Below are positions 46,920 to 50,435 of a stretch of 64,000 nt of DNA, piece after piece. The DNA is from Escherichia coli (GTDB lineage: Bacteria > Pseudomonadota > Gammaproteobacteria > Enterobacterales > Enterobacteriaceae), in assembly GCF_024298765.1 (NCBI RefSeq), contig NZ_CP101210.1; one strand, given 5' to 3'. The notes under the pieces are model-generated. The model saw only the letters and a list, made by a program, of their open reading frames with translations, was not told the origin of the DNA and ran no database searches. The position numbers were made by a program, and so were the translations under genes. The stretch's first letter is position 1, and every line of letters starts with the position of its first letter.

Positions 46920-49900
46920 ATGGATGAAAATGCTTTAGGGTTTGCCTCATACTGGCGCAACTCGCTTGCGGACGCTGAGTCAGGAAAGGGCAGTTTTGAA
47001 CGGAAAGACGCCAAAAATTTCACTCATTGGCATGGGATAGCGGCGGGACGTCTTGACGAAGCGATTGTCAGTAAATTTTTTAAGGGAGAAAAAGACGATG
47101 TCGAAACGGTCGATGTCATCTTGCGCCCAAAAGTTTATTTCCGGTTACTGCAGCATGGTAAGGACCGTTCTGCAGGTGCGCCTGATATTGTTACCCCGAT
47201 AGTGACGCCAGCCTTGCTAAGCCGTGAGGGTTTTTTATATCCGACGCCAGCGACCTCCATTCCCAGAGACCTGCTTGAACCTTTGCCAAAAGGAGCATTT
47301 TCGATTGGTGAGATTGGGCAGTATGACAAATACAAGACGACCCATACCACGTTCTCTATCAACTTTGATGACAGCGTTGATAAGACTGCCGAAACGGATG
47401 AAGAACGGGAAGAACGATATGCAGCCTTGCAGCAGGAGTGGCGTCAATATCTGGATGATTCAGAGAGGCTGCTGAAGAACGTTGCCGGCGACTGGATTAA
47501 AAATCCTGAGCAATATGAACTCGCTGAGCACGGTTATATTGTTAAAACGGCGCAATCTGGCGGTGCCAGTTTCCATATCCTTTCTCTTTATGATCACCTG
47601 CTTGTTTGCAATAAGGATGTGCCGCTCTTCAATCGATTCGCCTCGCGAGAGGTTCATGCTGCAGAGTCTTTGCTGGCCCCTGGAGCAAAATTCAGCGACA
47701 GGCTTGGACACTCCGGAGATAAGTTTCCGCTGGCAAAGGCTCAGCGCGATGCCTTAAGCCATTTTCTGGATGCTAAACATGGCGATATCCTTGCTGTTAA
47801 TGGCCCTCCTGGAACCGGAAAAACCACGCTGGTGCTTTCTATCATCGCCACGCAGTGGGCCAGAGCGGCTCTCGAAAAATCTGAGCCTCCGGTTATTATC
47901 GCGACTTCAACGAATAACCAGGCTGTAACGAACATTATTGAGGCATTCGGGAAAGACTTTTCGCAAGGTTCAGGTGCGATGGCCGGGCGATGGTTGCCAG
48001 AGCTGAAAAGCTTCGGCGCTTATTTTCCCTCAGGCAGCCGTAAAGCTGAAGCAGCCAAAAAATATCAAACTGAAGATTTCTTCAACCAGGTTGAGTCAAA
48101 AGAGTATGTAGAAGATGCACTGCTGTTTTATCTGGAAAAGGCTAAGGCAGCCTTTCCTGAAAAAGAGTGTTCATCCCCTGAAAAGGTCATTGAACTCCTG
48201 CATGGTCAGTTGGCAGCAAAATCCGAGCAACTGATAAGACTGAACGCAACATGGCAAAAGTTAAGCCAGATTCGGGCTGCGCGTGAGCTTATTGCTAATG
48301 ATATTGAGCAATATCTCAATAATTTAAATAAATTACTTTCCGGACAAGAACAAAAAATCACTCTACTGAAGAGTGCTAAAACGGAATGGAAAAAATATCG
48401 CGCCGGTGAATCACTGATCTATTCATTATTTTCCTGGCTTCCGGCGGTTCGCAGTAAGCGACAGTACCAAATACAGCTGTTTCTCGAAGATAAATTAGGT
48501 GCGCTGATTGCAGGAAATCAATGGTCTGATCCTGAAACTATCGAACGTAATATTGATGGGCTGCTCAATTCCGCTGAGCGCGAGCAAACAACATACCGGC
48601 AGCAGATTGACTCCGCCCATGAAATCATTCTTAAAGAACAGCAGGCGGTTCAGGAGTGGCAGAGACTGGCTCTTGATTTAGGGTATGAGGGCGACGAGGA
48701 ACTGAGCTTCTCACAGGCCGATGAACTGGCTGATACGCAGATTCGCTTCCCTGCATTTTTACTGACGACTCACTACTGGGAAGGTCGTTGGCTGATGGAT
48801 ATGGCCAGCATTGATGATCTGCAGGAAGAGAAGAAGAAAAAAGGCGCTAAAGGGGTAACCGCCCGTTGGCAACGTCGAATGAAACTCACTCCATGTGTGG
48901 TGATGACATGCTATATGCTGCCCGGCAATATGCAGATAAGTGAGCACAAAGGACAGCGTAAATTCGAGAAAAGTTATTTGTATGATTTTGCCGATTTACT
49001 CATTGTCGATGAAGCCGGGCAGGTGCTTCCTGAAGTGGCTGCTGCCTCGTTTGCATTAGCTAAGAAGGCATTAGTGATTGGCGATACGGAGCAGATCCCG
49101 CCAATATGGAGTATTGCTCCTGCGATTGATATCGGTAACATGCTGGCGGAAAAAATTCTGTCTGGCAGTACGCAAGAAGAGATTACCGAGAAATATACGG
49201 CAATCGCAGACCTTGGTAAAAGTGCCGCATCTGGCAGCGTTATGAAAATAGCGCAGTTTGCTTCGCGCTATCAATATGATCCCGAACTGGCTCGTGGTAT
49301 GTACCTATATGAACACCGCCGGTGCTACGACAATATTATTGGATACTGTAATACGCTCTGCTATCACGGTAAGTTGTTGCCTAAAAGAGGGCGTGAAGAG
49401 AGCAATTTAATGCCCGCAATGGGGTATCTCCATATTGATGGTAAAGGAGAGCTGGCAAGTAGTGGAAGTCGATATAATTTGCTTGAGGCTGAAACGATAG
49501 CGGTCTGGTTGGCAGAGAACCAGCAAAATATTGAAGCGCATTACGGTAAATCGCTTCATGAAGTTGTCGGTATTGTGACGCCTTTTAGCGCTCAGGTATC
49601 CACTATCAAACAGGTGCTGGGCAAACAAGGTATCAGTACGGGCACGAATGAAAAGTCGCTCACAGTGGGCACCGTGCACTCTCTTCAGGGAGCGGAAAGA
49701 GCGATTGTGATATTCTCGCCAGTCTATTCAAAACATGAAGACGGCGGGTTTATTGATAGCGATAACAGCATGCTGAATGTTGCAGTCTCCCGTGCGAAGG
49801 ACAGTTTTCTGGTCTTCGGCGATATGGACCTGTTTGAGGTCCAGCCAGCCTCATCGCCACGGGGATTACTGGCAAAATACCTCTTTGAGTCAGAGAAGAA

Positions 49901-50435
49901 TGCGCTCTCTTTTGATTATAAAGAGCGTAAGGATTTAAAAACCGCCGGGACCAAAATCTACACACTTCATGGTGTGGAGCAACATGATAATTTCCTGAAT
50001 CAGACATTTGAAAATACCAGTAAACACATCACGATAGTTTCTCCATGGCTGACCTGGCAAAGGCTGGAGCAAACCGGTTTTCTTGATTCCATGATTGCGG
50101 CGTGTTCACGTGGAATTAACGTCACGATAGTCACTGACAGAAGCTACAACACTGAACATAATGATTTTGAGAAGCGAAAAGAGAAGCAGCAGAACTTTAA
50201 AGCGGCGCTGGAGAAACTGAATGCGCTGGGTATTGCTACAAAGCTGGTAAACCGTGTTCATAGCAAAATTGTTATTGGTGATGATGGTTTGCTGTGCGTG
50301 GGATCGTTCAACTGGTTTAGTGCGACACGGGAAGCGCGATATGAACGATACGATACATCAATGGTTTATTGCGGTGATAACCTGAAGGGTGAGATTGAGG
50401 CTATTTATAATAGTCTTGAGAGGCGGCAGGTTTAG
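46920..50435 (+). CDS. Large SF1 (Upf1/DNA2-like) helicase fused to C-terminal PLD-family nuclease; candidate single-gene antiphage defence protein (type II Mokosh-like architecture)
   Basis: ORF track 1171 aa; Walker [13 protein letters not shown] (47802..47828); Walker [10 protein letters not shown] (about 49005..49022); SF1 motifs [15 protein letters not shown] and [17 protein letters not shown]-terminal HxKxxxxD motif HSKIVIGDD (50259..50282). Confidence 0.75.

Follow-up and report, generated by a model that had tools for sequence, protein, structure and literature searches.

What is the large open reading frame (ORF) that lies immediately behind a P4-like integrase at a tRNA-Phe gene of Escherichia coli: a member of a known defence system, or the founder of a new helicase–nuclease family? 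The question is raised by a stretch of 64,000 nucleotides from contig NZ_CP101210.1, hereafter the window, in which this frame encodes a protein of 1171 residues. An earlier note, made from the letters alone, had read the product as a superfamily 1 (SF1) helicase joined to a phospholipase D (PLD) nuclease, had compared it with Mokosh type II and taken it to be a defence effector, and had foreseen a new helicase–PLD family should it not be a recognised Mokosh member. The best explanation, which we hold with very little doubt, is that the gene is mkoC, a one-gene Mokosh type II anti-phage system and the first cargo gene of a pap-type island at tRNA-Phe (pheU). As an almost identical E. coli version of MkoC, which was described and tested in 2022, it is already known and adds no new biology. 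What is new here is a confident full-length model, a conserved N-terminal domain of 266 residues that has no solved structural relative, and a set of relatives without a PLD, which stop at this very domain border.

The mkoC frame (46920..50435, plus strand, stop codon included) is uninterrupted, starts with ATG and specifies a product with a calculated mass of 131.5 kDa. The identical gene appears in RefSeq as WP_021572001.1, with unchanged start and end, and is labelled only ‘AAA domain-containing protein’. The MkoC profile of PADLOC-DB (PDLC03924) matched the protein at E=0 with 1694.1 bits, residues 1–1169 aligning with positions 1–1135 of the 1136 in the profile; matches of the remaining PADLOC defence profiles were confined to the helicase or PLD motifs that they share with it. 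Mokosh systems pair a Upf1-like (COG1112) RNA helicase with a PLD nuclease, and in type II both are carried by one gene; three such systems defended E. coli, and mutants of the helicase ATP site or of the PLD lost defence (Millman et al., 2022; 10.1101/2022.05.11.491447). The validated type II construct, SG150, comes from E. coli 5-366-08_S1_C1; its MkoC (IMG 2586378093), of 1171 residues, is marked verified in the supplementary table of that study (10.1101/2022.05.11.491447). The window protein shares with it species, length, start, helicase–PLD architecture and an identical 75 bp before the start codon. Over the first 399 residues, the part compared, the two are 97.0% identical and differ by 12 conservative substitutions. 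No database representative matched these 399 residues of SG150 exactly, the closest differing at 7 positions. Because the two proteins are equally long and E. coli mkoC alleles are 94–98% identical overall, the identity to SG150 presumably continues over the remaining 772 residues. A third point of contact is EcMokosh II, for which constructs M1–A995 and L996–end and a modelled mass of 132 kDa are given in a 2025 preprint on nuclease–NTPase systems (10.1101/2025.07.10.664194); residues A995 and L996 of the window protein, and its own mass, fit these borders and this value.

All features that define Mokosh type II and can be read from sequence are present. Besides the full-length MkoC match, these are a Upf1-like (COG1112-type) SF1 helicase with intact ATP-binding motifs, an HKD-bearing nuclease of the PLD family that forms the C-terminal part of the one fused polypeptide, and a single gene with neither a kinase–helicase MkoA nor a separate MkoB beside it. 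Pfam detected no kinase domain in the protein. The neighbours of mkoC are the integrase and a phosphoethanolamine transferase, neither with a PADLOC match; that no neighbouring ORF matches a defence profile is consistent with a one-gene system. The profile hidden Markov model search proposed in the earlier note thus returned AAA_11, AAA_12 and PLDc_2 from Pfam together with MkoC, which bears out the comparison with Mokosh type II, and the closeness to the validated SG150 protein supports the view of the gene as a defence effector. The new-family alternative fails because the gene is already a recognised and experimentally validated Mokosh member.

Every motif that had been listed for the frame (Walker A, VDEAGQ, motifs V and VI, HSKIVIGDD) was recovered, once each. 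Pfam places AAA_11 at residues 272–492 and 679–729, AAA_12 at 777–969 (E=2.2e-21) and PLDc_2 at 1028–1138 (E=1.2e-9). The earlier picture is refined in two respects: the helicase begins not at the N-terminus but after a conserved domain of 266 residues, and RecA1 is interrupted by a helical insertion of ∼270 residues. The N-terminal domain (residues 1–266; 46920..47717; this and the following segments lie on the plus strand) is a family-specific alpha/beta domain with conserved YWRNSLAD and IPRDLLEP motifs. It is followed by a Upf1-like SF1B helicase core (residues 267–975; 47718..49844), assigned from Pfam AAA_11/AAA_12 and Foldseek and made up of the split RecA1 and then RecA2. Motif searches locate the Walker A sequence GPPGTGKTT at residues 295–303 (47802..47828), the Walker B or motif II sequence VDEAGQ at 696–701 (49005..49022), TVHSLQGAE at residue 918 and VAVSRAK at residue 954. 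The C-terminal PLD-family nuclease domain (residues 1010–1171; 49947..50432) was recognised by Pfam PLDc_2 and PLDc and by partial PADLOC MkoB and DrmC matches. Its catalytic motif, HSKIVIGD (residues 1114–1121; 50259..50282), is a single HKD; HSKIVIGDD at residue 1114 is the sole H.K....D in the protein.

When 1.84 billion cluster representatives were searched for homologues, 1141 proteins reached E<=1e-30. About half of the 150 best-scoring representatives are end-to-end relatives, 31–52% identical to MkoC, and 78 of these, at 30–51% identity, formed the alignment on which conservation was scored and the structure modelled. Invariant or nearly so are Walker A (G295–T303), DEAGQ (697–701) and the HKD residues H1114, K1116 and D1121, as well as Y11, D18, G104, R116, L119, P121, D136, W174 and Y224 in the N-terminal domain. 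The full-length AlphaFold2 model has a mean predicted local distance difference test score of 93.7 and a predicted template modelling score of 0.89. It consists of the alpha/beta N-terminal domain (1–266), RecA1 (∼270–345 and ∼655–730), RecA2 (∼780–975), a linker and a compact PLD domain (1010–1171). RecA1 is split by five long helices (420–458, 462–495, 508–530, 538–586 and 597–630) within the insertion (∼residues 385–655; 48072..48884), where column conservation is low (0.21–0.34).

When the model was compared with the PDB by Foldseek, the top matches were UPF1, SETX/Sen1, IGHMBP2, Aquarius and Dna2 (E 1e-16 to 1e-11); with nsp13 and ZNFX1 also returned, the matches spanned E 1e-16 to 1e-10. 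A PDB sequence search gave weak Upf1, SETX, IGHMBP2 and Dna2 matches on RecA2 only, and neither search of the PDB found a solved Mokosh structure. The PLD domain alone matched the single-HKD nucleases NucT (6EHI, E=0.022) and Nuc (1BYR, E=1.2) marginally; designed ‘Bagel’ propeller proteins, which recurred with this query, were disregarded as spurious. For the conserved N-terminal domain no solved structural relative was found, and we infer that it is a sensor or regulatory module.

Comparison with better-known proteins sharpens this description. MkoC shares the helicase core fold with the Upf1-like SF1B helicases UPF1, SETX/Sen1, IGHMBP2 and MOV10L1 (Foldseek E ∼1e-16), at a very low sequence identity of 13–14%. 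It differs from Upf1 in having another N-terminal domain and a long helical insertion in place of the 1B/1C domains, and its substrate demonstrated so far is single-stranded DNA (ssDNA). The pairing of helicase and PLD nuclease recalls MOV10L1 and PLD6/Zucchini, although the eukaryotic partners are separate proteins. Each chain of MkoC, as of Nuc and NucT, carries one HKD in a small PLD fold; in sequence they are marginally similar. Nuc and NucT are stand-alone homodimers, whereas for MkoC a monomer in solution has been reported and the PLD is tethered to a helicase. Mokosh type I (MkoA and MkoB, as in enterotoxigenic E. coli H10407) is related in both halves, the helicase core matching MkoA at E=3.5e-36 and the PLD matching MkoB at E=7.6e-17. 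In contrast to the kinase-free window protein, with its fused PLD and its own N-terminal domain, type I consists of two genes, MkoA having a serine/threonine kinase domain and MkoB a helix-turn-helix. MkoA profiles match residues 692–994 only (profile positions 793–1081 of 1112) of what is here one fused gene; type I is excluded because there is neither a kinase domain nor a separate MkoB.

Nor was a confident match to a housekeeping helicase family found, which the earlier note had named as a result that would count against it. NCBIfam scores lay far under their cut-offs for RecD (24.9 versus 310), RecD2 (26.5 versus 500) and the IGHMBP2 family TIGR00376 (79.4 versus 348.9), and likewise for the defence helicases PLuB_AAA (85 bits versus 999), ProA (41 versus 1500) and Hhe (38 versus 2000). 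Housekeeping helicase families are excluded because no NCBIfam model reaches its cut-off, the best being the 85 bits of PLuB_AAA. PADLOC profiles for Nhi, Hhe, PLuB, ProA, DpdJ and type IV CRISPR DinG/RecD gave short P-loop or motif II matches at E 1e-7 to 7e-3.

How, then, might such a protein act? Purified EcMokosh II is monomeric by mass photometry and cleaves ssDNA substrates only (the M13 and SECphi17 genomes), while nicking plasmid; linear double-stranded DNA (dsDNA), dsDNA phage genomes and chromosomal DNA are left intact (10.1101/2025.07.10.664194). Walker A and Walker B mutants still cleave M13 DNA and the PLD mutant is inactive; against a panel of 11 phages, protection was seen only for the ssDNA phage SECphi17 (10.1101/2025.07.10.664194). 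The literature examined does not explain what activates a PLD that has one HKD and sits on a monomer.

In the PLD superfamily, as in Nuc, Zucchini and BfiI, the active site is made of two HKD motifs; to our knowledge, all characterised PLD nucleases form it in this way. Because PLD active sites need two HKD motifs and MkoC carries one, two MkoC molecules would have to pair their PLD domains on the substrate; the free monomer would therefore be harmless and non-toxic. In the sequence of events that we propose, an invader would expose single-stranded nucleic acid, be it the genome of an ssDNA phage, an intermediate of replication or perhaps a transcript, and the helicase would load onto it. ATP hydrolysis would not be required for the chemistry; in vivo it could serve translocation, processivity, or the selection, discrimination or processing of the target. 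Cutting the loaded strand would fall to the PLD domain. In its fullest form the proposal is that MkoC is inactive as a monomer, that a composite site forms once two copies, each brought by its helicase to the same stretch of foreign ssDNA, pair their single-HKD PLDs under the control of the fold-orphan N-terminal domain, and that its main job in the islands of extraintestinal pathogenic E. coli (ExPEC) is to block ssDNA phages, conjugative transfer and rolling-circle replicons. We offer this tentatively, and consider it rather unlikely.

Several points weigh against the identification or against the mechanism built upon it. Only the first 399 residues of the validated SG150 protein were compared directly, the other 772 being covered by extrapolation; the defence experiments concern a near-identical E. 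coli protein and not the window allele itself; and EcMokosh II was equated with the window protein by construct borders and mass, not by accession. The concentration dependence of EcMokosh II cleavage is ambiguous because text and legend of the preprint disagree, the former calling activity robust at ‘all concentrations’ and the latter giving cleavage at 1 uM (10.1101/2025.07.10.664194). The substrate panel of the same study contained no RNA (10.1101/2025.07.10.664194), which leaves room for a different in vivo target, and a January 2026 review still has Mokosh as incompletely characterised. Finally, the dimerisation step is deduced, whereas mass photometry gives a monomer.

Several lines of evidence keep alive the alternative that the physiological target of MkoC is RNA or RNA/DNA hybrids (phage transcripts, R-loops) rather than ssDNA. 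The helicase would then unwind or translocate on RNA and the PLD would cut it, much as MOV10L1 and Zucchini/PLD6 do in the biogenesis of PIWI-interacting RNAs. The nearest solved folds are the RNA helicases UPF1, SETX, IGHMBP2, Sen1 and Aquarius, and the fused Mokosh of E. coli has been found structurally similar to MOV10L1 (template modelling score 0.74) and PLD6 (0.63) (Cury et al.). The alternative stays live because RNA was missing from the 2025 panel (10.1101/2025.07.10.664194) and because this parallel joins the original RNA-sensing hypothesis (10.1101/2022.05.11.491447). Nevertheless, purified EcMokosh II cleaves ssDNA, the one phage of the panel against which it defends has an ssDNA genome, and Upf1-like helicases including Dna2 and IGHMBP2 act on ssDNA too. 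An RNA target is accordingly a possibility to be taken seriously, but a doubtful one.

It is improbable that MkoC serves mainly as a barrier, on behalf of its pathogenicity island, to mobile elements with an ssDNA stage (conjugative DNA, rolling-circle plasmids, filamentous phages) and not in defence against lytic phages. Cleavage restricted to ssDNA and the very narrow anti-phage range of 1/11 would suit such a role. So would two features of the gene: in pap islands, at each of three tRNA sites, mkoC always follows the integrase directly, and it is common, being carried by 888 of the 5426 complete E. coli genomes. However, an integrase-adjacent position is typical of ordinary defence cargo as well, Millman et al. 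chose and validated the gene as anti-phage, and the literature examined reports no assay of conjugation or of plasmids.

We see practically no prospect that the protein is a housekeeping or repair SF1 helicase (RecD, IGHMBP2 or Dna2-like) or a member of a different group of helicase–nuclease defence proteins, be it Nhi, Hhe, PLuB, ProA or Mokosh type I. The partial matches that speak for it, namely those to MkoA, to Nhi (E=0.001) and to the NCBIfam families scored above, stop at the shared helicase motifs whereas the MkoC profile spans the whole length, the kinase domain and separate MkoB gene of type I are missing, and the gene lies in an accessory island present in 16% of E. coli genomes.

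Among the 150 best MkoC-family representatives, some 20 are without a PLD: they stop near residue 996, where helicase and PLD meet. Five of their loci, all outside the window, were examined (L005, 2851–6973; L006, 612–6982; L007; L008; and L010). In one of them the PLD-less relative is directly preceded by a GGDEF protein, and in another by an ADP-ribosyltransferase-like protein of the ART-PolyVal type and an 899-residue protein without assigned function. No consistent partner gene was found across these five neighbourhoods, which lie on short contigs; in three the neighbours are unrelated or unassigned. The occurrence of a chassis of N-terminal domain plus helicase, without PLD and beside other enzymes, suggests undescribed, effector-swapped Mokosh-like systems. 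This is a lead only.

The DNA on either side of mkoC contains several potential regulatory elements. A perfect GC-rich hairpin with a 13-bp stem, terminator-like on the minus strand, lies immediately 3' of the integrase stop codon (46470..46500) and would insulate mkoC from integrase read-through. A perfect 10+3+10 palindrome, ATATGGACAA-TAG-TTGTCCATAT (46844..46866), is located 54 bp upstream of the mkoC start and was scored ‘terminator-like’. The alleles at leuX and pheV retain its core, TGGACAATAG..TCCA, with 1–3 changes, as does the SG150 construct, where the palindrome is imperfect; the element may be an operator or an RNA leader hairpin. A promoter scan found no sigma-70 consensus on the plus strand upstream of mkoC. 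Between the mkoC stop codon and the convergent phosphoethanolamine transferase gene there is a weak terminator-like hairpin (50444..50464, plus strand). An ORF of 87 residues between integrase and mkoC (46568–46831, minus strand), which has no family match and is unannotated in RefSeq, was treated as non-coding.

The position of the gene directly after a P4-type integrase in a tRNA-Phe island, as claimed in the earlier note, was confirmed. The attachment site is the pheU copy of tRNA-Phe (GAA; 44933..45008, plus strand), identified by ARAGORN and by the annotation of the identical region in strain 26561, with the chromosomal genes dsbD and dicD immediately upstream. The integrase (45206..46468, plus strand) is a P4-like tyrosine recombinase of 420 residues with the Pfam architecture Arm-DNA-bind_3, Phage_int_M and Phage_integrase; its match to NCBIfam PRK09692 (E=2.6e-74) falls under the cut-off, and RefSeq calls it ‘tyrosine-type recombinase/integrase’. 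In strain 26561, where the gene is 100% identical, the order is dsbD, dicD, tRNA-Phe, integrase, mkoC, the convergent phosphoethanolamine transferase, an outer-membrane protein, PhoX, insertion sequence (IS) debris and papG. The 64-kb window contains no second copy of the tRNA-Phe 3' end, which places the far border of the island beyond base 64000.

Other features of the window were noted in passing. The phosphoethanolamine transferase (499 residues; 50544–52043, minus strand) is distant from the CptA, EptA and MCR families (best 107 bits versus a cut-off of 404). The PhoX-family protein (659 residues; 54292–56271, minus strand) has no NCBIfam or PADLOC match and is followed by IS3 and IS66 (ISEc8) debris (56900–63000). 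Collinearity with strain 26561 is lost past ∼60.6 kb; the island interior has therefore been rearranged between strains. In the conserved chromosomal part of the window lie three tandem tRNA-Gly (GCC) genes (14925–15344, minus strand); the third is spaced differently from its counterpart in strain 26561, a sign of an insertion or deletion within the array.

Among complete E. coli genomes mkoC is always chromosomal; 839 of the genomes that carry it do so with at least 80% coverage, and the alleles fall into classes of at least 99% identity (69 genomes) and 95–99% (809 genomes). According to an RNA-seq preprint, expression of Mokosh type II differs little between strains and shows a positive correlation with growth markers. 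Mokosh II and type IV restriction have been reported to co-occur in E. coli and to be co-localised there (Wu et al.); a PADLOC scan detected no type IV restriction gene beside the window mkoC. The integrase, mkoC, the convergent phosphoethanolamine transferase, the outer-membrane protein, which is Tia/Hek/Adr-like, and the pap fimbrial genes (45206–56271 of the window; loci L002 and L003) form a block that recurs in different E. coli strains at three tRNA sites: pheU, as in the window, leuX and pheV. Mokosh II is therefore a passenger on a classic backbone of ExPEC pathogenicity islands. These observations document that, in the pap-type islands that are widespread in extraintestinal pathogenic E. 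coli and occupy pheU, pheV and leuX, Mokosh type II is the integrase-proximal cargo gene.

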